Sequence record: OZ346158.1
DNA length: 64,000 nt
Reading direction: 5' to 3' (one strand)
From: a phage
Position numbers and translations under genes: made by a program. The notes under the pieces were generated by a model. That model worked only from the letters and a program-made list of their open reading frames with translations, did not search any database and was not told the origin of the DNA. Shown here piece after piece: positions 14,340 to 59,826 of this stretch (within the stretch, counting starts at the first letter, position 1; each line of letters opens with the position of its first letter).

Positions 14340-14351
14340 CAAGGGGGTAAA

Positions 14352-14384
14352 TAAAAAGGGGCCAAACGGCCCCTTTCTTTTTAT
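14352..14384. terminator. bidirectional rho-independent terminator between convergent blocks
   Basis: AGGGGCC-AAAC-GGCCCCT hairpin flanked by A-run upstream and T-run downstream; sits between + gene ending 14339 and - gene ending 14387. Confidence 0.75.
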
Positions 14385-33551: not shown

Positions 33552-33580
33552 GCCCTGCCCGAAAGGGTGGGGCTTTTTGC
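33552..33580 (+). terminator. rho-independent terminator (sequence repeated at 45180)
   Basis: GCCCTGCCC-GAAA-GGGTGGGGC hairpin followed by TTTTTGC; same 22-nt hairpin recurs at 45180. Confidence 0.7.
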
Positions 33581-45179: not shown

Positions 45180-45209
45180 GCCCTGCCCGAAAGGGTGGGG
45201 CATTTTTGT
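45180..45209 (+). terminator. rho-independent terminator (copy of 33552 hairpin)
   Basis: GCCCTGCCC-GAAA-GGGTGGGGC followed by ATTTTTG. Confidence 0.7.
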
Positions 45210-48704: not shown

Positions 48705-48739
48705 TATTTTAAGTTATCAGATTGCCAGAGATCAGGAGG

Positions 48740-49200
48740 ATTTCTAAAATGGATTTCCTCCTTTTGATATTTTACCTACCAGGATATTTTAAAATCCTTA
48801 GAAAATCAGAAAATGGATCGAAAACTAAAATGGATTTTTCAGAGCAGGCACGACGAGATGAACCACTCATCCTATCGTCTGCACCATATTCCAGACCACC
48901 ATTACAGATTTCCCGCACATGCTCACATCCTTCTACTAGAACTTCCCCCACTTACCCTTGACCTTTTATAGTAATAATCCAACCACTACCTTGAAGTTGT
49001 GGCGCAGCTTTCCAAGTACTCGATCTGTTTTTCGTTTCAAAGATTTAATTTTCTGAAAATTTTTCTCGATAAATTTCTCAGTACTCGATCTGTTTTTCGT
49101 TTTCTGAATCGGATTTTCTGGAAATCGTTCCGGCTCTCGACCTGAAATTTTTGGGGACGAAATCGATTTTTCGTTTTCAGAAATGGATTTTTAAAATTTC
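48740..49200. repeat. iteron-like direct repeats in non-coding region
   Basis: AGTACTCGATCTGTTTTTCGTTT at 49015 and 49080 (65-bp spacing), related CGATTTTTCGTTTTCAG at 49163; several AAAATGGAT copies between 48745 and 49190. Confidence 0.6.
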
Positions 49201-50628: not shown

Positions 50629-50711
50629 AAATCATTGACACGCTGCAAAATTTAAGTAAACTAGACACAAAAGGCGGGAATGTTTCCCGCCAGCACAAAG
50701 GAAAAAAGATC

Positions 50712-51107
50712 ATGAATAAGAACGTACGCCGCATCATGAACGAACTGGCAAACGATGAAAAAATTATTGACATGCATTTAGTCAACATTTGCCGCCGTTG
50801 TGTAACATATAACAACCGCGCCGCAAAAGCGCGTGAGATGAACGCAAAAGGCACCTTAAAGCCCTTTCAGGTGGTTGTAAAATCTATAACCAGTGCAGCA
50901 GGCCAGGCGCATGACCACAACAACGGGAGCACTAATATTGATCCGTCTTACGTAATGAAACGGATCCGGACTTGCAAGAATAAAGAGCAGGTGTATAATG
51001 TCATAGACTGGTTGGATTCTATGGGCGATGTGGTTTACAATAGGTTTTCTGCAGCTATCGAGATCCAGCTTGACAGGTTGGACGGTAAAGTACTGAAAAC
51101 TTACTAA
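50712..51107 (+). CDS. hypothetical protein
   Basis: ATG after AAAGGAAAAAAG; upstream TTGACA-16-TAAACT and leader hairpin GGCGGGAA-TGTT-TCCCGCC. Confidence 0.5.
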   Translation: MNKNVRRIMNELANDEKIIDMHLVNICRRCVTYNNRAAKAREMNAKGTLKPFQVVVKSITSAAGQAHDHNNGSTNIDPSYVMKRIRTCKNKEQVYNVIDWLDSMGDVVYNRFSAAIEIQLDRLDGKVLKTY

Positions 51108-51155
51108 GATTATTTTTAGATGGCCTTGACTTCAGGGCCATCAATAAAGTAAACT
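51105..51155 (+). repeat. 51-bp intergenic element, copy 1 (hairpin ATGGCC-TTGACTTCAG-GGCCAT)
   Basis: TAAGATTATTTTTAGATGGCCTTGACTTCAGGGCCATCAATAAAGTAAACT starting at the stop codon; identical copy at 51736, diverged copy at 55475. Confidence 0.8.
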
Positions 51156-51187
51156 AATCCCAGTTAAGCGAAAAAGGAGGCTTGAAG

Positions 51188-51307
51188 ATGAGCACTACAC
51201 GCCAACACACAAAGGTAACGATTATCGTTTGCATCATTGGTTACATCCTGGCGCAAATGTTGATGGGTAGCGCCAATGATTTCGCAAAATTTTTCTTAGA
51301 CTTTTAA
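51188..51307 (+). CDS. small membrane peptide (39 aa)
   Basis: AAAAAGGAGG RBS; hydrophobic core VTIIVCIIGYILAQMLM. Confidence 0.4.
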   Translation: MSTTRQHTKVTIIVCIIGYILAQMLMGSANDFAKFFLDF

Positions 51308-51335
51308 TTGACAAGCTAACTTAAATCAGTATAAT
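51308..51335 (+). promoter_or_regulatory. sigma70-like promoter TTGACA-16-TATAAT
   Basis: Consensus -35 and -10 hexamers, then leader hairpin and RBS for gene 51388. Confidence 0.6.
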
Positions 51336-51387
51336 ACTAAGCACATAAACGGGAAAACTTCCCAGAACACCAAAAGGAGAAAACATT

Positions 51388-51738
51388 ATGAATACTTCCA
51401 TCACTATGACCGCCGAAGAAAAAGCCCTGCAGATCGCCGCTCTGAAAAAACAGATTGCAGAACTTGAAGACAAGATCGACAATTTTGAAATCGACGAAGA
51501 CAAGTACGACGATAAATATGATGAATGGTTAGACGAGATCTACGGCGAAATTATGATCGGAAACATTTCTTTTCTTCCGTCGCGTATCCTCAAGGAGCTA
51601 GATCCTATCGCTTACCGCTGCGGATTTAGCGACTACATCGACAGCCTGGATATTGAGGACGATGAAGAATACCAGGAATTACAGACAGAGTTAGAAGAAG
51701 CAAAAGAAGAGCTTGCAGAACTGGAAGAAAACGAGTAA
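51388..51738 (+). CDS. highly acidic coiled-coil protein (candidate DNA mimic)
   Basis: 116 aa dominated by D/E (e.g. DIEDDEEYQELQTELEEAKEELAELEENE); AAAAGGAGAAAA RBS; own promoter. Confidence 0.6.
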   Translation: MNTSITMTAEEKALQIAALKKQIAELEDKIDNFEIDEDKYDDKYDEWLDEIYGEIMIGNISFLPSRILKELDPIAYRCGFSDYIDSLDIEDDEEYQELQTELEEAKEELAELEENE

Positions 51739-51786
51739 GATTATTTTTAGATGGCCTTGACTTCAGGGCCATCAATAAAGTAAACT
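51736..51786 (+). repeat. 51-bp intergenic element, copy 2
   Basis: Identical to 51105..51155; begins at stop codon of 51388..51738. Confidence 0.8.
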
Positions 51787-51827
51787 TTATACTGTTAACA
51801 CTGAACTAATGCATAGGAGTTAAAACC

Positions 51828-52073
51828 ATGGCAGCACTAATCACCAAATATTATGCCCCTACCAACACCAAAAGCGCCCGTATCATGGTAAAAGGCTTCG
51901 GACGTAAAAAGGTGTACACCTGGGATTATGCCTTAGACACGGAAGACAACTACACCAACGCGATGACCGATTTTATTAATGATCTGAACACGCGGATCTT
52001 GACAAATTATAAAATTACCGATATTGCCTATATAGGGGAAGGCGGGATCTGTTTTGTCGGTATCGTCAAATAA
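51828..52073 (+). CDS. hypothetical protein
   Basis: 81 aa, RBS GGAGTTAAAACCATG. Confidence 0.5.
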   Translation: MAALITKYYAPTNTKSARIMVKGFGRKKVYTWDYALDTEDNYTNAMTDFINDLNTRILTNYKITDIAYIGEGGICFVGIVK

Positions 52074-52148
52074 GCTGTTTTTTCGGTGGTCCTGGTAGCA
52101 GGGCCATCTATAAAGATAGTTTATCAATACAATGAAAGGAGAAAGTAC

Positions 52149-52502
52149 ATGATCAGCGGGGCAAGTTTTATTATTGGCGCTATTGCTACGGCTTTAATTG
52201 TAAACAAGATCCAATCTAAAAACGAAAAAGATAGCAACGCCCTTACAGAATACCCGTTTTGGGTATTCAACGACAATGAAGACTATATTATCAAGTACAA
52301 GAATGAGAAGGGCGACCAGGTAACACCTCGACCGATCCCGGCTTACAAGATGCAAGAAACACTATACCGCCTAAAGGCTGGAGGCGCAAAAATCGTAGAC
52401 TTTTGGGGATACGATCACACAGATCAGGAAGTTATAAAGCGCCGTATCCGGGCTATTCAGGCCAATATTGAAGTTAGCAAGGGGGGAATATATGAAGATT
52501 AA
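52149..52502 (+). CDS. membrane-anchored hypothetical protein
   Basis: ATG after AAAGGAGAAAG; N-terminal hydrophobic helix. Confidence 0.5.
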   Translation: MISGASFIIGAIATALIVNKIQSKNEKDSNALTEYPFWVFNDNEDYIIKYKNEKGDQVTPRPIPAYKMQETLYRLKAGGAKIVDFWGYDHTDQEVIKRRIRAIQANIEVSKGGIYED

Positions 52503-52689
52503 TTTTGAGAAGATTGTAAAGCGATCTCATGCTTCCGAAGAGCTGCCGGAACGCCGCCAGCGCAACAATAAACTGAATAAGCCAAAAAGATTTGGGAAGA
52601 TCTGGCGGAATCATTATGATCGCAAATTACCGGGCCTGCTTTTGGAACGTGAACGACAGGCGGAACGATACCGCCACAAAGGCAAATAA
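52492..52689 (+). CDS. small basic protein
   Basis: ATG after GGGGGGAA; Arg/Lys-rich 65 aa. Confidence 0.4.
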   Translation: MKINFEKIVKRSHASEELPERRQRNNKLNKPKRFGKIWRNHYDRKLPGLLLERERQAERYRHKGK

Positions 52690-52697
52690 CAACCAAC

Positions 52698-52727
52698 GCC
52701 CCGCCATTGTGCGGGGCTTTTTATTTC
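52698..52727 (+). terminator. rho-independent terminator
   Basis: GCCCCGC-CATTGT-GCGGGGC followed by TTTTTATTT. Confidence 0.75.
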
Positions 52728-52871
52728 TATCCTACAAATAGCGCCCCTGGTTGGCCCTGTAAGCGCCAAAAAGGCCCCACCTATGCAATCGCCCCCCCTT
52801 TAACCTGAAAACATCGCTTAGGGCCGTTTTATGGCGTTAAAAATATCATTGACAGTGATTTTATTTAAAGC

Positions 52872-52899
52872 TTGACATCTTAAACAGGTTAGCTATACT
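52872..52899 (+). promoter_or_regulatory. sigma70-like promoter TTGACA-16-TATACT
   Basis: cTTGACAtcttaaacaggttagcTATACT upstream of gene 52932. Confidence 0.55.
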
Positions 52900-52931
52900 A
52901 ACCACATCAAAGAGAGAAAGGAGTAAACGCC

Positions 52932-53192
52932 ATGCGTAAATTAAAAAATTTTGATAAAGTTGATGTTGTCCTGAATAATTTTTACTACTGCAACAACAAG
53001 GCCATTTGGTGGCGTGATAGTTCCACCGATAAAGTCAAGGCGCGCTTTCTCCAGGGGCACTGGCAAGGCCGCCCAGTGATTAAAATCATGGGGCAATTGG
53101 TAGCGTTTAAAAATTGCCGCCGTGTTGATGACGTTGAAGAGATCTTGAATATTTTACGCCACAATAATTTAAAAAATAGTGTTGACAAGTAA
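52932..53192 (+). CDS. hypothetical protein
   Basis: 86 aa, AAAGGAG RBS. Confidence 0.5.
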   Translation: MRKLKNFDKVDVVLNNFYYCNNKAIWWRDSSTDKVKARFLQGHWQGRPVIKIMGQLVAFKNCRRVDDVEEILNILRHNNLKNSVDK

Positions 53193-53209
53193 ATCTCAAT
53201 AAGTATACT
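53182..53209 (+). promoter_or_regulatory. sigma70-like promoter TTGACA-16-TATACT
   Basis: gTTGACAagtaaatctcaataagTATACT, followed by leader hairpin GCGGGAA-GTTT-TCCCGC and RBS. Confidence 0.55.
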
Positions 53210-53266
53210 TAAGCACACAGGCGGGAAGTTTTCCCGCCACTAACAAAGAAAATAGGAGAAAATATC

Positions 53267-53890
53267 ATGACCACCGTTAACATTACCACAGGTTGCAATT
53301 TATCTTTCGACGTGCTGACCGACGAACAAAAAGAAAAAGCTATTGAAATGGTCCGCGAAAGAGAAGAACACAGCGGAGAGGATTTTTTCGCAGAAAGTGT
53401 AATTGAATATTATAAAGAACAAGTTTTTCCAGAGTACGGCCTTGAAGATACCGATGTACATTGGTCCGGCTTTTGGTGTCAAGGCGATGGCGCGTCAATT
53501 AATGCTGAAAATGTAGACTTAGAGAAATTCTTGCGTAAAGTCAAGGCCCTGACCAAGTTCCGATCAATTCGTCACTTGTTCGGCACAATGCACGATGGCG
53601 AACTATCAGCCAGTGTTGAACGCGACAAGTACAGCCATTACAGCCATGAAAACACTGTAAGCGGATATATTGATACTACCTGGCTAGATCTGACCGCAAA
53701 ACAAGAAAATAAAGTAGAAGATCTGGAAGAGCTGATCACCGAGACGGTACGGGAGCTATCCCGCAAGGTTTATGTAGACCTGGAGGAGGCCTATCTTGAA
53801 CAGTTTACTACCGAAAACCTGATCGGCCTTATTGAAGCCAATGATTGGCGGTTTGATGTGGATGAATATGGAGAAATGAGTTTTTCATAA
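53267..53890 (+). CDS. hypothetical acidic protein (207 aa)
   Basis: AATAGGAGAAAA RBS; acidic composition; own promoter. Confidence 0.55.
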   Translation: MTTVNITTGCNLSFDVLTDEQKEKAIEMVREREEHSGEDFFAESVIEYYKEQVFPEYGLEDTDVHWSGFWCQGDGASINAENVDLEKFLRKVKALTKFRSIRHLFGTMHDGELSASVERDKYSHYSHENTVSGYIDTTWLDLTAKQENKVEDLEELITETVRELSRKVYVDLEEAYLEQFTTENLIGLIEANDWRFDVDEYGEMSFS

Positions 53891-53898
53891 ATAAAGTG

Positions 53899-53926
53899 TT
53901 GCAATAATCTAAAAACCTGCTATATT
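53899..53926 (+). promoter_or_regulatory. sigma70-like promoter TTGCAA-16-TATATT
   Basis: gTTGCAAtaatctaaaaacctgcTATATT upstream of gene 53982. Confidence 0.5.
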
Positions 53927-53981
53927 AAAACTTAAGGGGGAGAGATGACTTGCCCCCACACAAAACAAAGAGGAAAACATC

Positions 53982-54362
53982 ATGAAAAACACTACTAAAG
54001 CTATTGACACCGTTATGTTTAACCTGGTTACATTCCGTGAAGATATGAAAGATCTTCCACGTGAAACAGTGTGCGACCATATCGAAAACTATCGCAAACT
54101 AATCAAAGAGTTGCCTTTAAAACGTGACCAGTACGCGGCTAACGCTATGCTTAACGCCATGATCAAGAAAATGATTCAGTGCGATTTGACTTTAGCTTAT
54201 GATTATGCAGGTGGTCGTTTTGCAGTATACAATCAGCCCGTGCCTGGTATGAGCACCACAGAAGAATTGCACGCGTTAAATCTAAAACAAGACGTATGGG
54301 ATAACATGCCCCGCGTGGTGGTGTGGGCAGAAAGCGGAAAGATTTACGGCGATAATTTTTAA
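53982..54362 (+). CDS. hypothetical protein
   Basis: 126 aa, AAAGAGGAAAACATCATG RBS. Confidence 0.55.
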   Translation: MKNTTKAIDTVMFNLVTFREDMKDLPRETVCDHIENYRKLIKELPLKRDQYAANAMLNAMIKKMIQCDLTLAYDYAGGRFAVYNQPVPGMSTTEELHALNLKQDVWDNMPRVVVWAESGKIYGDNF

Positions 54363-54372
54363 TCAGGTAACA

Positions 54373-54398
54373 GGCGGCATATTTGCCGCCTTATTGTT
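54373..54398 (+). terminator. rho-independent terminator
   Basis: GGCGGC-ATATTT-GCCGCC followed by TTATTGTT. Confidence 0.6.
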
Positions 54399-54426
54399 AA
54401 ACAGAACTGCAAAAGAGGTACATAGA

Positions 54427-54798
54427 ATGGAATTTATTATTTTGGCTGTAGTAGTTGCCTTGTTCAACGCCTGGATCGCTGGCAAGATAGGTAGATCCGC
54501 TTTTCTATGGTTTGTTATATCTATTTTCCTGGGAGTGGTTGCAACTATTGTATTGGTTATCCTTGCAATTGTTGACAAGGGGAATAATAGAAAGGGTAAA
54601 GTATTTTCAGACCTGTACGACGCTCAAACGTTTGTCAACGCCTATTATAGTGATCTTCCAGTCTCCCTACGTTGCAGCCTTGCACAACAGGTTTTCGATG
54701 AAGCTAAAACCAGAGATCACGCCCATGAGATTTGTTTAACTGAGGCGGATCGCCTATTTGAGAGGAATAGAAAATATGTGGACCAGCCGTTTAAATAA
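54427..54798 (+). CDS. inner-membrane protein (two predicted TM helices)
   Basis: ATG after AAAAGAGG; N-terminal hydrophobic segments IILAVVVALFNAWIAG and FLWFVISIFLGVVATIVLVILAIV. Confidence 0.55.
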   Translation: MEFIILAVVVALFNAWIAGKIGRSAFLWFVISIFLGVVATIVLVILAIVDKGNNRKGKVFSDLYDAQTFVNAYYSDLPVSLRCSLAQQVFDEAKTRDHAHEICLTEADRLFERNRKYVDQPFK

Positions 54799-54908
54799 TG
54801 CCACGTTAATTAACCCCTTTAGTGAAGATTTGAAGCCAGCCGCCTGGCGGGATGGATTCAATAACGAAAGCTTTATTTTCAGGCCTGATCTTAAGGAATT
54901 TTATAACA

Positions 54909-55136
54909 ATGGATCGAACAACGACAGAGATAATTTTTCTTGTAATGTGCGTGGTGATAATACTCCTGGGGGCCATTGCAAACCACGTCACTGCTAACAG
55001 GAGGAAAGGGGAGACGATGACACCCAAGGATAAGCCCCGTACCGATAAGGCGCGCCGTGTTATGGTATGGCTTGAGATCATCGCCCTTGAAATATTGTTA
55101 GGCGTAGGGATGTATTTTATCGCTGTAAGTAATTGA
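54909..55136 (+). CDS. possible small membrane protein (start and frame uncertain)
   Basis: ATG after AAGGA; two hydrophobic helices; competes with overlapping ORF 54776..54997. Confidence 0.3.
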   Translation: MDRTTTEIIFLVMCVVIILLGAIANHVTANRRKGETMTPKDKPRTDKARRVMVWLEIIALEILLGVGMYFIAVSN

Positions 55137-55276
55137 TAACGGCCCCGATCCCTGGGGCCTAACTTTTCAAATTTTTTTCTCCCTGAGTGTTGCAATCCGA
55201 TCCAGAATATGGATAATAACAATCAACGGGGAGACACTCCCCACCGCATAGACAAAGTTCCAAAAGGAGAAACAAA

Positions 55277-55477
55277 ATGAGCAACAATATCCGCGTTATT
55301 AACTTCAAAAAAGAAGAAAAAATTGCCGTGCTGATTGACGGTCAAGAAATCTTTAAAGGTGATTATGAAGATCATCAAACGGCGATTAGTATCACTCGCG
55401 TGATTGGTTACCATAATTTTTACCCTCAAGGCGCTGAGGCAGCAGTAAAACGAATTAAAGAGATTGTAGGCCTGTAA
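55277..55477 (+). CDS. hypothetical protein
   Basis: 66 aa, AAAAGGAGAAACAAAATG RBS. Confidence 0.5.
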   Translation: MSNNIRVINFKKEEKIAVLIDGQEIFKGDYEDHQTAISITRVIGYHNFYPQGAEAAVKRIKEIVGL

Positions 55478-55525
55478 AATTTATTTTTAGATGGCCTTGA
55501 CTCCAGGGCCATCAATAAAGTAAAT
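55475..55525 (+). repeat. 51-bp intergenic element, copy 3 (diverged)
   Basis: TAAAATTTATTTTTAGATGGCCTTGACTCCAGGGCCATCAATAAAGTAAATT. Confidence 0.75.
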
Positions 55526-55568
55526 TTAAACCCTGTTAAAATAATCAGTGCAAAAAGGAGTAATGATC

Positions 55569-55885: not shown

Positions 55886-56236
55886 ATGAAAGTAAAACTA
55901 TATTACCTTAATGAGCTTAACCCCCTTGCCCAGGTCCGCGCCATGGCTAATACCTTGATTTGTGAGAAATCTGTATATTGTGTTGAGCTTAACTCCATGC
56001 GTGAACGTCTCAAAGGTGGTTACTTTGACATCCATGCTGCAATCAACGGCCTGAATATGGAATTTATCCGCTTACGTAACAGCCGCCAGAATCTGGGAAG
56101 AATGGAACAAGATCCGGCCCACCTTCGTAAGCTGGTTATTGAAAATCATCTAATGTTTAATGCCGATGGTGATTATTACCATTTTCACCGTAAACGCTGG
56201 TACCGTAGCGGCAATATAGGAAAGAATGCAAAATAA
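55886..56236 (+). CDS. hypothetical protein
   Basis: 116-aa ORF, weak RBS. Confidence 0.45.
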   Translation: MKVKLYYLNELNPLAQVRAMANTLICEKSVYCVELNSMRERLKGGYFDIHAAINGLNMEFIRLRNSRQNLGRMEQDPAHLRKLVIENHLMFNADGDYYHFHRKRWYRSGNIGKNAK

Positions 56237-56270
56237 GGCCCCTGGCAGGGCCTGCAGCGATATAATCACA

Positions 56271-56305
56271 TAAAGGCTATGCGGTTGCATAGCCTTTATT
56301 ATTTT
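56271..56305 (+). terminator. rho-independent terminator
   Basis: AAAGGCTATGC-GGTT-GCATAGCCTTT followed by ATTATTTT. Confidence 0.7.
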
Positions 56306-59778: not shown

Positions 59779-59796
59779 TTTCTTAACTGAATTATC

Positions 59797-59826
59797 AAGG
59801 GGCTTAAAGGCCCCTTTCTTTTTGTC
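59797..59826 (+). terminator. rho-independent terminator ending the + strand small-gene array
   Basis: AGGGGC-TTAAAG-GCCCCT followed by TTCTTTTTG. Confidence 0.75.

Follow-up and report, generated by a model that had tools for sequence, protein, structure and literature searches.

What does a 51-bp element do that recurs between the small early genes of a phage? The initial annotation offered a promoter with an operator, an RNA processing site or a terminator variant. The window, the whole 64,000-nt stretch analysed here, comes from a Vequintavirus (rV5-like) phage with 99.7% identity to Escherichia phage MaxBurger. Our analysis suggests that the element forms an RNA hairpin between the cistrons of early polycistronic mRNAs, occurs in four paralogous copies and is a probable host RNase III site, a reading that we hold with moderate confidence. 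It appears to be an interesting, fairly ordinary kind of phage regulatory repeat.

Copies and their genomic placement

A repeat finder run on the window returns one repeat family, consisting of four 51-nt copies between small early genes. The copies, with their covariance-model scores, are as follows.

51105..51155, + strand: copy 1, starting at the TAA stop of a 131-aa ORF; 76.8 bits
51736..51786, + strand: copy 2, starting at the TAA stop of a 116-aa ORF; fold z-score -5.5; 79.4 bits
52070..52124, + strand: copy 3, a diverged paralogue starting at the TAA stop of an 81-aa ORF; 75.2 bits
55476..55527, + strand: copy 4, after the TAA stop of a 66-aa ORF; fold z-score -6.8; 79.8 bits

All four lie on the sense strand, within one 4.4-kb stretch and in a single orientation, and each begins at the stop codon of the upstream gene (these genes end at 51107, 51738, 52073 and 55477). 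As the initial annotation stated for the stop codons at 51107 and 51738, copies 1 (51105-51155) and 2 (51736-51786) share 100% identity, and its slightly diverged copy after the gene ending at 55477 is recovered at 55476-55526 with 90% identity. The looser relative placed at 52076 is a true relative that carries the whole hairpin (copy 3, 52071-52121, 69% identical), but both TTGACT and TAAACT, described as common to every copy, are missing from it. The downstream TAAACT holds for copies 1 and 2, whereas copy 4 has TAAATT. Repetition of the element is also evident from its core, GGCCATCAATAAAGTAAA, which occurs 3 times with at most 3 mismatches versus 0.07 expected by chance. When a covariance model built from the element family is run on the window and on the complete MaxBurger genome, its hits are exactly these four sites. 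Phage and bacterial genome searches place the element in one genus only: related copies were found in Vequintavirus phages, the other phage groups searched contain none, and a scan of 185,579 species-representative genomes of bacteria and archaea did not find it.

A conserved, strand-specific RNA hairpin

Two programs, RNAfold and RNAalifold, independently predict the same structure of 20-23 bp. Its layout in copy 1, which copy 2 shares, is given below.

51105..51155, + strand: whole RNA fold, -20.7 kcal/mol, z-score -5.2
about 51108-51116 / 51146-51155, + strand: lower helix
51117-51118 / 51143-51145, + strand: internal loop
51119-51128 / 51133-51142, + strand: upper helix
51129-51132, + strand: tetraloop ACTT

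The 6-bp stem of the initial annotation gives way to a 10-bp upper helix, GAUGGCCUUG/CAGGGCCAUC (GATGGCCTTG/CAGGGCCATC), which includes one T.G pair and is closed by a tetraloop. Between it and the rest of the stem lies a conserved 2x3 internal loop, followed by a lower helix of 10-13 bp, which is A-U and pairs a 5' U-tract with a 3' A-tract. The TTGACT hexamer was assigned to the loop, which is correct for AC(NN) and incorrect for TTG, which is paired. Copy 4 has the tetraloop ACTC and differs from copy 1 in the lower helix by one compensatory G-C to A-U change. The most stable hairpin is that of copy 3 (-28.2 kcal/mol, z-score -8.1, on the + strand; -9.2 kcal/mol, z-score -1.6, on the - strand), with a 13-bp lower helix, a 10-bp upper helix containing two G.U pairs and the tetraloop GTAG. 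Its hairpin is kept, even strengthened, though its promoter boxes are lost. Across the copies, fold z-scores range from -5.2 to -8.1 on the + strand versus -1.6 to -3.0 on the - strand.

Covariation was examined in 45 distinct sequences from about 20 genomes of one genus, with at least 85% identity. In the upper helix, 100% of cells are paired, and the four positions that vary do so solely by switches between Watson-Crick and G.U pairs. In the lower helix, 4-5 pairs show compensatory double changes (GC/AU/GU, UA/CG, UA/AU/GU/GC and AU/UA). Overall, 92.7% of cells are paired on the + strand versus 81.7% on the - strand, and sliding the 3' partner along lowers pairing to 36-56%. None of 500 shuffle controls, which ignore sequence relatedness, matches the observed pairing or covariation score. 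Because the sequences belong to one genus at this level of identity, and because the paralogous copies may have been homogenised by gene conversion, few independent substitutions underlie the covariation. Most helix and internal-loop positions do not change among copies 1, 2 and 4; the exceptions are a few rare single-sequence changes, the lower-helix pairs that covary and the first nucleotide on the 3' side of the internal loop. Free variation is confined to positions 3 and 4 of the tetraloop. The most divergent relative has flanks of 85% identity, whereas its element cores outside the loop are about 98% identical. The element is a conserved RNA structure specific to one strand.

Cassette loss between copies

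Relatives of this phage differ by cassette indels with chimeric junctions, bounded by the copies, a feature missed in the initial annotation.

51156..51735, + strand: cassette A, between copies 1 and 2
51188-51307, + strand: 39-aa ORF of cassette A
51388-51738, + strand: 116-aa ORF of cassette A
51787..52070, + strand: cassette B, between copies 2 and 3, with a single 81-aa ORF (51828-52073)

Cassette A, which also holds a near-consensus promoter (51308-51335), is missing together with one repeat copy from phiWec189, ime, ECP26 and the IMG/VR contig IMGVR_2051223002_7; its interior is found in 115 records, versus 121 carrying the element. In 241Ecol014PP, cassette B is missing, and a chimeric copy 2/3 stands in its place. 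The lengths lost, 631 bp or 335 bp, run exactly from copy to copy, and the alignment breaks of all cassette-lacking relatives fall inside the repeat. The copies are direct repeats of ~50 bp at gene boundaries; homologous recombination between them has therefore deleted, or possibly inserted, whole ORFan cassettes in relatives of this phage.

Proposed RNA processing and the rival readings

Of the three functions first proposed, an RNA processing site is the best supported, because the element is a strand-specific two-turn hairpin with an internal loop, G.U-only variation in the upper helix, compensatory changes and a geometry like that of T7 RNase III sites. The surrounding transcription signals, and those inside the copies, are listed below.

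50635..50662, + strand: upstream promoter TTGACA-16-TAAACT, whose transcript would read through copy 1
51308..51335, + strand: consensus promoter TTGACA-16-TATAAT, annotated as P192 in rV5
55190..55217, + strand: promoter-like site TTGCAA-16-GATAAT, with a 5' stem-loop after it; a transcript starting here would cross copy 4
52698..52722, + strand: canonical intrinsic terminator, GCCCCGCC...GGCGGGGC then TTTTT, from a terminator scan
51126..51155, + strand: putative sigma70 promoter TTGACT-18-TAAACT in copy 1, 9/12 matches
51757-51786, + strand: equivalent promoter-like site in copy 2, whose orthologue is a PhagePromoter prediction annotated in phage Gotham
55497-55526, + strand: equivalent promoter-like site in copy 4, TTGACT-18-TAAATT

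Transcripts from the strong upstream sigma70 promoters (50635, 51308 and 55190) would run through the element, and the terminator scan finds no terminator between these promoters and the copies. Transcription from 51308 would cross copies 2 and 3 and end at the terminator at 52698, which closes the operon holding both. Copy 3 lies inside this operon with two conserved genes downstream, for which no promoter of their own was found. The RNA would fold as a roughly two-turn irregular helix (A-U lower stem, 2x3 internal loop, G-C-rich upper stem and tetraloop) to be recognised by host RNase III, or else by another double-strand-RNA-binding factor. A single cut would fall in the 3' side of the internal loop, with predicted positions near 51143-51146, 51774-51777, 52109-52112 and 55514-55517. 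On the model of T7 R0.3-R1.3, cleavage would leave a protective 3' hairpin on the upstream cistron and free the downstream cistrons. We infer that the element is transcribed, that RNase III cuts it and that it has promoter activity, the cut in rV5-like phages purely so.

When the T7 early sites R0.3, R0.5, R1, R1.1 and R1.3 are run through the same folding program, they have an upper stem of 9-10 bp with a tetraloop and an internal loop; with its lower stem, the element shares this irregular hairpin. Both are intercistronic, a few to a few tens of nucleotides past a stop codon, on a polycistronic early message that host RNA polymerase transcribes (presumably so for the element). A further likeness is that the T7 promoters lie in the same short spacers as the T7 processing sites. 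Counted from the loop, the pairs are C-G, U-A and U.G in R1.1 and G-C, U-A and U.G in the element, whose canonical UA/UG distal box adjoins the loop in the same register. As in R1.1, proximal-box position 4 is non-Watson-Crick, and position 2 is A-U, which the rules allow (PMC1540722). Two helical turns with an internal loop lead to a single cleavage and a protective 3' hairpin (PMC1540722), and the outcome expected here is likewise an upstream cistron so protected. Unlike the T7 sites, to which it has no sequence homology and whose phage family is unrelated, the element has a smaller internal loop (2x3 versus ~4x5), a longer and almost pure A-U lower stem, and near-identical, recombining copies. 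The cleavage that we infer also fits imperfectly: positions 1 and 3 of the proximal box, aligned as in R1.1, are the non-canonical U-A and G-C instead of the optimal G-C and A-U. In copy 3, C-G takes the place of the U.G preferred in the distal box, and in a minimal substrate every distal-box substitution reduces reactivity. Finally, an RNase III hairpin does not account for the invariant AC in the first two loop positions; this dinucleotide completes TTGAC and speaks for a real -35 box.

Copies 1, 2 and 4, which share TTGACN-18-TAAAYT, may indeed act as weak internal promoters, an activity that is plausible, not required. As the main function, an early sigma70 promoter (UP-like T-tract, TTGACN, 18-nt spacer, TAAAYT) would drive the downstream ORFan, with the stem-loop as an attenuator or insulator against read-through, as for the promoter-early stem-loops (PeSLs) of T4-type phages (Arbiol et al. 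2010, PMC2839356; Comeau et al. 2014, PMC4122927). The layout fits the published PeSL description: a composite intergenic motif running from the upstream stop codon, with an AT-rich tract and sigma70-like boxes overlapped by a stem-loop, then a Shine-Dalgarno sequence and ATG, concentrated among ORFans, as in this ORFan-rich region, with motifs that bound indels of close relatives and contain the crossovers, as the copies bound the cassettes. The promoter part of the initial proposal is strengthened by TTGAC being fixed in copies 1, 2 and 4 while the next two nucleotides are free, as expected of a -35 hexamer, by the -10 context AAGTAAACT, which also serves the TTGACA promoter at 50635, and by the PhagePromoter call on the copy 2 orthologue in Gotham. 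However, copy 3 has no -35 box (CTGGTA) yet is equally conserved and structured. A 9/12 match with an 18-nt spacer is common in shuffled sequence (75 found versus 44 expected), 1-nt insertions give 19-20-nt spacers with an intact hairpin in Phage203, VB-EcoM-WM and Ga0129313, and the sites are not in the rV5 authors' stringent promoter search. Neither the spacer invariance nor the lower-helix compensatory changes would be explained, and efficient termination is unlikely because the hairpin has no U-tract on its 3' side and copy 3 is followed by two conserved genes. The phage is also not T4-type, the family has only four copies, the boxes are weak and dispensable in copy 3, and the two-turn stem-loop, with its U-tract 5' and A-tract 3', shows RNA-type covariation. 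We regard a primary promoter function as possible but rather unlikely. The operator part is weak: a dimeric phage or host regulator covering the -35 box would bind duplex DNA at GATGGCC-N10-GGCCATC, whose perfect 7-bp arms overlap the -35-like hexamer in copies 1, 2 and 4, but in copy 3 and several orthologues the arms lose their symmetry as duplex DNA (GGTGGTCC versus GGGCCATC; GATGGTC in FFH2) while always staying G.U-compatible on the + strand. By our own reasoning, half-sites 17 bp apart centre to centre, about 1.6 turns, would face different sides of the helix, and conservation continues through the covarying lower helix; such an operator is very unlikely. A variant intrinsic terminator ending the upstream gene's transcript would account for a stable G-C-rich hairpin immediately past the stop codon, and PeSL stem-loops are reported to terminate transcription. 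This reading is nevertheless highly improbable, as CAATAAAGTAAA replaces the U-run after the hairpin, the T-run lies upstream of it with the - strand arranged alike, the terminator scan called none of the four copies, and the promoterless genes after copy 3 lead to the canonical terminator at 52698.

The structural and strand-specific findings would equally support a structured RNA that RNase III leaves uncut. Such an RNA might be a passive 3'-5' exonuclease barrier stabilising the upstream cistron, a stop-codon-proximal modulator of translation termination or the binding site of a phage-encoded protein. REP elements stabilise the upstream message as RNA and serve as recombination substrates as DNA. 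Like the REP/BIME of enterobacteria, the element is a short imperfect palindrome repeated just past stop codons within operons, but its sequence is unrelated, and it is phage-encoded in four copies rather than hundreds. The G-C-rich upper stem starts 11 nt past the stop codon in every copy, and the invariant internal-loop nucleotides would suit a sequence-specific binder. However, a simple barrier needs neither the A-U lower helix nor the internal loop, both of which are conserved, the former by compensatory changes, and the flanking ORFs examined hold no candidate RNA-binding protein; we find this reading doubtful. The chance is slight that the element is a dedicated recombination site or selfish mobile repeat (compare integron attC and MITEs), in which a recombinase would recognise a single-stranded DNA hairpin and move ORFan cassettes. 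Two different cassettes are precisely copy-bounded and polymorphic among relatives, the 81-aa gene of cassette B has homologues in unrelated phages, and single-stranded DNA would also tolerate G.T pairs. Against this, there are just four copies in one orientation within 4.4 kb, none in the bacterial genomes or other phage groups searched, and no integrase or transposase in the genome annotation; ordinary homologous recombination across 17-50 bp of identity accounts for the junctions. One more likeness to PeSLs is that the strong promoters neighbouring the element copies also have G-run/C-run stem-loops.

Distribution and inferred operon context of the repeat

The element is an intercistronic repeat that a repeat finder resolves into a single family of four 51-nt copies, as follows:

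51105-51155, + strand, copy 1
51736-51786, + strand, copy 2, identical to copy 1
about 52070-52124 (repeat finder start 52071), + strand, copy 3, 69% identical
about 55476-55527, + strand, copy 4, 90% identical

Three core matches were found versus 0.07 expected by chance, and each of the four copies starts at the stop codon of its upstream gene. The covariance model of the family locates exactly these four sites and no others in the window and the remaining parts of the genome of Escherichia phage MaxBurger (Vequintavirus, rV5-like). The three intergenic copies and the looser relative described in the initial annotation are therefore real. MaxBurger is the best of 123 phage records matched by megablast with the 6-kb stretch around the element (99.7% identity), and the window corresponds to approximately 32.5-96.5 kb of its 136-kb genome. 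The search of other phage genomes for the 51-mer, proposed as a check in the initial annotation, returned 121 records, all of them Vequintavirus or mislabelled members, with typically three blast-detectable places per record in this phage collection. Seventeen GenBank records named as Campylobacter phages (MG0656xx) are 94-100% identical to the rV5-like genus across the region; MG065644.1 (L006) is flagged UNVERIFIED, and most of the seventeen carry no annotation. These records are probably contaminating coliphages or phages with misassigned hosts.

In IMG/VR and metagenomes, the element is carried by rV5-like contigs only. Scanning IMG/VR with a 15-base core gave 67 loci, among which three loci on two contigs are true copies and the others are chance matches lacking the hairpin; the metagenome scan yielded only a few further rV5-like contigs. 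The element is absent from all 185,579 species-representative bacterial and archaeal genomes scanned. No curated covariance model in Rfam matched it, all hits being at chance level and far under the gathering scores. When the flanking ORFs of 131, 99, and 117 aa were used as tblastn queries, no homologue appeared beyond the genus. The literature searched holds no description of the element, no transcriptome of an rV5-like phage, and no mention of a counterpart in the rV5-like group of the promoter-early stem-loops (PeSLs) of T4-type phages.

The region around the element is a long series of small + strand ORFs, among which near-consensus sigma70 promoters and a small number of canonical terminators are scattered. 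Searches of Pfam and PHROGs assign no function to these ORFs, with one exception: the 65-aa ORF at 52492-52689, downstream of copy 3 in its operon, is a member of the family of the T7 gene 1.1 protein (PF08200, E = 2e-10). In T7, gene 1.1 immediately follows the RNase III site R1.1. Three putative transcription units, with promoters named by their start in the window, can be read from the sequence:

Unit 1, + strand: promoter P50635 (TTGACA-16-TAAACT), 131-aa ORF, copy 1, 39-aa ORF
Unit 2, + strand: promoter P51308 (TTGACA-16-TATAAT), 116-aa ORF, copy 2, 81-aa ORF, copy 3, 117-aa and 65-aa ORFs, canonical intrinsic terminator at 52698
Unit 3, + strand: promoter P55190, 66-aa ORF, copy 4, 99-aa and 116-aa ORFs, terminators near 56236-56300

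If these units are correct, each copy would be transcribed as part of a polycistronic RNA, where it would lie at the 3' end of one of the cistrons.

Hairpin anatomy and conservation

Folding of each spacer, of each 60-mer, and of the whole alignment gave one common structure. A lower helix of 10-13 pairs joins a 5' U-tract (UUAUUUU) to a 3' A-tract (AAAGUAA). Above it lies an internal loop with two nucleotides on the 5' side and three on the 3' side, found in every copy and every genome, and then an upper helix of 10 pairs, GAUGGCCUUG/CAGGGCCAUC, which includes one U.G pair and is capped by a tetraloop. Twenty pairs, 10 in each helix, are conserved in all copies, and copy 3 reaches up to 23. 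The hairpin noted in the initial annotation is thus present, and it is larger than the perfect 6-bp stem described there. The TTGACT hexamer that had been placed in the loop lies there only in part, since TTG belongs to the upper stem and the loop contains AC plus a variable nucleotide; the downstream TAAACT is in the 3' strand of the lower helix.

Conservation was examined in an alignment (A1) of 45 distinct copy sequences from about 20 genomes. In the upper helix, 100% of cells are paired, and the four positions that vary switch only between Watson-Crick and G.U pairs; the lower helix shows compensatory double changes at four to five pairs (e.g., G-C / A-U / G.U and U-A / C-G). None of 500 shuffles, which were not corrected for relatedness, reached the observed pairing or covariation score, and pairing falls from 92.7% to 36-56% when the 3' partners are slid. 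The signal is strand-specific. When the same pairs are read on the - strand, 81.7% of cells are paired as compared to 92.7% on the + strand, because G.U pairs turn into A.C; fold z-scores range from -5.2 to -8.1 on the + strand and from -1.6 to -3.0 on the - strand. Helix and internal-loop positions are mostly invariant across copies 1, 2, and 4; the exceptions are the lower-helix pairs that covary, the first nucleotide on the 3' side of the internal loop, and a few rare changes confined to single sequences. Within each paralogue class, the internal-loop nucleotides are invariant. In Ga0129313, the most divergent relative, identity is 85-87% in the flanks and about 98% in the cores, loop excluded. 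These comparisons provide evidence, at the level of sequence, that the hairpin structure has been under selection on the sense strand. All of the sequences belong to a single genus, and exchange between the paralogues is possible, so that the independent events behind this signal are modest in number.

Positions 3 and 4 of the tetraloop, with four and two alleles, respectively, are the sole freely variable sites in an almost invariant 47-nt core (51129-51132, 51760-51763, 55500-55503, and their orthologues). In 10 of 13 genomes, the same loop allele is present in copies 1 and 2, which hints at gene conversion between the copies or at a mutation hot spot. In copy 3 of phage Alma (L087, 5830-5896), the upper helix has an extra G in its 5' arm and an extra T in its 3' arm, and the predicted fold retains the helix with one bulge; these insertions may be genuine or may reflect an error of assembly.

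Candidate functions of the hairpin

The T7 spacers containing the early RNase III sites R0.3, R0.5, R1, R1.1, and R1.3, at what we take to be their positions on the T7 map, were folded with the same tool as the element. The T7 hairpins show a GCAA loop and U.G and C-G middle pairs, as described for R1.1, the middle box of which is U12:G27 and C13:G26 with loop GCAA (PMC1540722). In both the T7 early sites and the element, an upper stem (9-10 bp in T7) is closed by a tetraloop and separated from a lower stem by an internal loop. Substrates of E. coli RNase III span about two helical turns, or approximately 20-22 bp, and an internal loop limits cleavage to one phosphodiester, leaving a protective 3' hairpin; 11 pairs from the cut to the tetraloop are enough (PMC1540722). 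The element has 20-23 pairs, about two turns, together with the 2 x 3 internal loop, which is present in all four copies and has an equivalent in the T7 sites when folded in the same tool.

Recognition by RNase III involves two boxes. The distal box (U-A, U.G) lies some 10-11 bp away from the scissile bond; the proximal box comprises 4 bp, for which the optimum is G-C, A-U/U-A, A-U, A-U/U-A and in which G-C at position 2 is an antideterminant (PMC1540722). In copies 1, 2, and 4, the second pair from the tetraloop is U28-A35 and the third is U27.G36, which matches T7 R1.1; counted from the loop, the element reads G-C, U-A, U.G and R1.1 reads C-G, U-A, U.G. These three copies carry a predicted canonical distal box. 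Copy 3 lacks it, with C-G replacing U.G at the second distal-box position. The proximal-box register was carried over from R1.1. In that register, position 2 is A-U, which is allowed and is not an antideterminant, and position 4 is non-Watson-Crick, as it is in R1.1; positions 1 (U-A) and 3 (G-C) are off the optimum. By analogy, we infer that the element would be cut once, in the 3' side of the internal loop, as an RNase III-type site. Such a cut would part the cistrons and leave the upstream cistron with a 3' hairpin. In T7, promoters and RNase III sites are placed together in short spacers. In its mode of working, the element would be closest to the T7 early RNase III sites, to which it has no sequence kinship. 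We class it as a phage intercistronic processing or regulatory hairpin repeat, so far undescribed in the literature searched.

The initial annotation had also offered a terminator variant and a promoter with an operator. The former was not borne out. The hairpin is followed by CAAUAAAGUAAA rather than a U-run, the U-run lies upstream, and the - strand is alike, with a 5' U-run and a 3' A-run; a terminator scan makes no call. Copy 3, which has the most stable hairpin, lies inside an operon and is followed by two conserved genes without a promoter of their own and then by the canonical terminator at 52698. Tract polarity and operon context together argue that the element is not an intrinsic terminator. 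The operator reading was dropped because of strand asymmetry: copy 3 and some orthologues lack symmetry in duplex DNA but are always paired as + strand RNA. The element is probably not a duplex-DNA operator.

The promoter part of that proposal is more evenly balanced, and it concerns copies 1, 2, and 4, which carry TTGACN-18-TAAAYT (9/12 matches); copy 3 has nothing comparable and lacks a -35. Within the three copies, TTGAC is invariant and the next two nucleotides are free, a -35 pattern that the hairpin does not demand. The -10 context AAGTAAACT is common to the element and the independent promoter at 50635, we read the upstream T-tract as UP element-like, and the copy 2 orthologue in phage Gotham is a promoter predicted by PhagePromoter. 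However, a 9/12 match with an 18-nt spacer belongs to a class that is also common in shuffled sequence, and the promoters listed for the region in the rV5 genome paper and GenBank record do not include the element sites. Moreover, 1-nt insertions lengthen the spacer to 19-20 nt and leave the hairpin intact; three independent ones are in the 3' side of the internal loop, and one more is in the tetraloop of the Ga0129313 copy. We consider the chance about even that copies 1, 2, and 4 also work as weak internal promoters, a role that would be secondary to the RNA structure. A Frpo-type single-strand promoter was rejected by reasoning that the -35 would be in the loop and not in the duplex stem.

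Recombination at the copies

Recombination has occurred at the copies. Phages phiWec189, ime, and ECP26 and one IMG/VR contig have a single copy in place of copies 1 and 2, with its left flank from copy 1 and its right flank from copy 2. These four sequences lack the 631 bp between the two copies, which comprise two ORFs and the promoter at 51308. The interior of this cassette (cassette A, 51156-51735) is found in 115 records, as compared to 121 for the element. In phage 241Ecol014PP, the missing stretch is the 335 bp separating copies 2 and 3, which contain the 81-aa ORF (cassette B, 51787-52070), and the chimera carried by this phage switches from copy 2 to copy 3 sequence within CAGGGCCATC-ATAAAG. 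Among the cassette-less genomes, the alleles of the 131-aa gene differ (classes of about 97% and about 88%), and so do the copy 3 haplotypes, which suggests more than one event. The 81-aa gene of cassette B (51828-52073) has homologues with 43-47% identity in unrelated Seuratvirus-type siphophages (CAjan, slur01) and weaker ones in Pseudomonas and Klebsiella phages, and therefore looks like a widely exchanged small gene. The cassette indels may be either a function of the element or a by-product of 50-bp direct repeats.

The PeSLs of T4-type phages show the same motif-bounded indel behavior (PMC2839356, PMC4122927). Like PeSLs, the element is intergenic among ORFans, starts at an upstream stop codon in an AT-rich tract, and is followed by a Shine-Dalgarno sequence and ATG (the ATG is 25-43 nt past the element, and the flanking ORFs have no known function). 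It also shares motif-bounded indels between close relatives, with the crossover inside the motif and chimeric junction copies. The PeSL promoter is strong and is TTGACA-N17-TATAAT or a close variant; the putative counterpart in the element is the 9/12 match of copies 1, 2, and 4, with an 18-nt spacer (19-20 nt in some relatives). The PeSL stem-loop is a terminator or attenuator, whereas that of the element has no 3' U-tract, is not called by the terminator scan, and lies within operons. PeSLs occur in T4-type myoviruses in dozens of copies per genome, and the element occurs in Vequintavirus in exactly four. In its genomic behavior, the element is closest to PeSLs without being their sequence relative.

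A bolder reading, which we hold to be very improbable, is that the hairpins are dedicated, dual-use cassette-junction sites of Vequintavirus. Their RNA form would process early messages, and their DNA form, acting either as a hairpin of single-stranded DNA or as a short patch of homology and perhaps with a phage factor, would excise and insert ORFan cassettes as small circles. Were it true, the hairpins would amount to an integron-like system of gene shuffling outside the T4 group, and recombination would have produced the hypervariable loop positions as a by-product. Integron attC-type sites come with a cognate tyrosine recombinase and with arrays of many cassettes. An integron attC-like site was rejected, there being no recombinase and only four copies; none of the 227 annotated features of the MaxBurger genome is an integrase or recombinase.

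Phages of the rV5-like group have been isolated widely and are considered for therapy and biocontrol. A conserved putative RNase III-type signal within three early operons would offer a first handle on expression of the ORFan cluster in these phages. Cassette loss at the copies would carry gene shuffling mediated by regulatory repeats from T4-type phages to another large myovirus lineage, and the element sites mark natural, tolerated deletion and insertion points for phage engineering. The structure and the cassette polymorphism are clear, and they do not overturn current understanding.

Other repeats and stem-loops were observed in the window. Near-consensus sigma70 promoters of the ORFan cluster have a G-run/C-run stem-loop about 8-15 nt past the -10 (e.g., GGCGGGAATGTTTCCCGCC, GGGAAAACTTCCC, and GGGGAGACACTCCCC), at the following sites:

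50635-50700, promoter and G-run/C-run stem-loop
51308-51365, promoter and G-run/C-run stem-loop
53182-53240, promoter and G-run/C-run stem-loop
53899-53960, promoter and G-run/C-run stem-loop
55190-55250, promoter and G-run/C-run stem-loop
57015-57065, promoter and G-run/C-run stem-loop

These stem-loops represent either a PeSL-like architecture of promoter plus stem-loop or hairpins that stabilize 5' ends. Upstream of the cluster of copies, 294 nt at 48705-48998 contain no ORFs; after them come degenerate direct repeats of 65-74 nt (49006-49191, families D2 and D5), where Tandem Repeats Finder reports a short 12-nt array only; the stretch at 48705-49200 may be the "non-coding" box of the rV5 paper. 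Two pairs of near-identical terminator-like hairpins at distant sites add to the short repeated regulatory sequences of the genome, one pair at 33552-33578 and 45180-45206 (GCCCTGCCCGAAAGGGTGGGGC followed by a T-run) and the other at 14349-14382 and 59790-59823 (AAGGGGCC...GGCCCCTT followed by a T-run).
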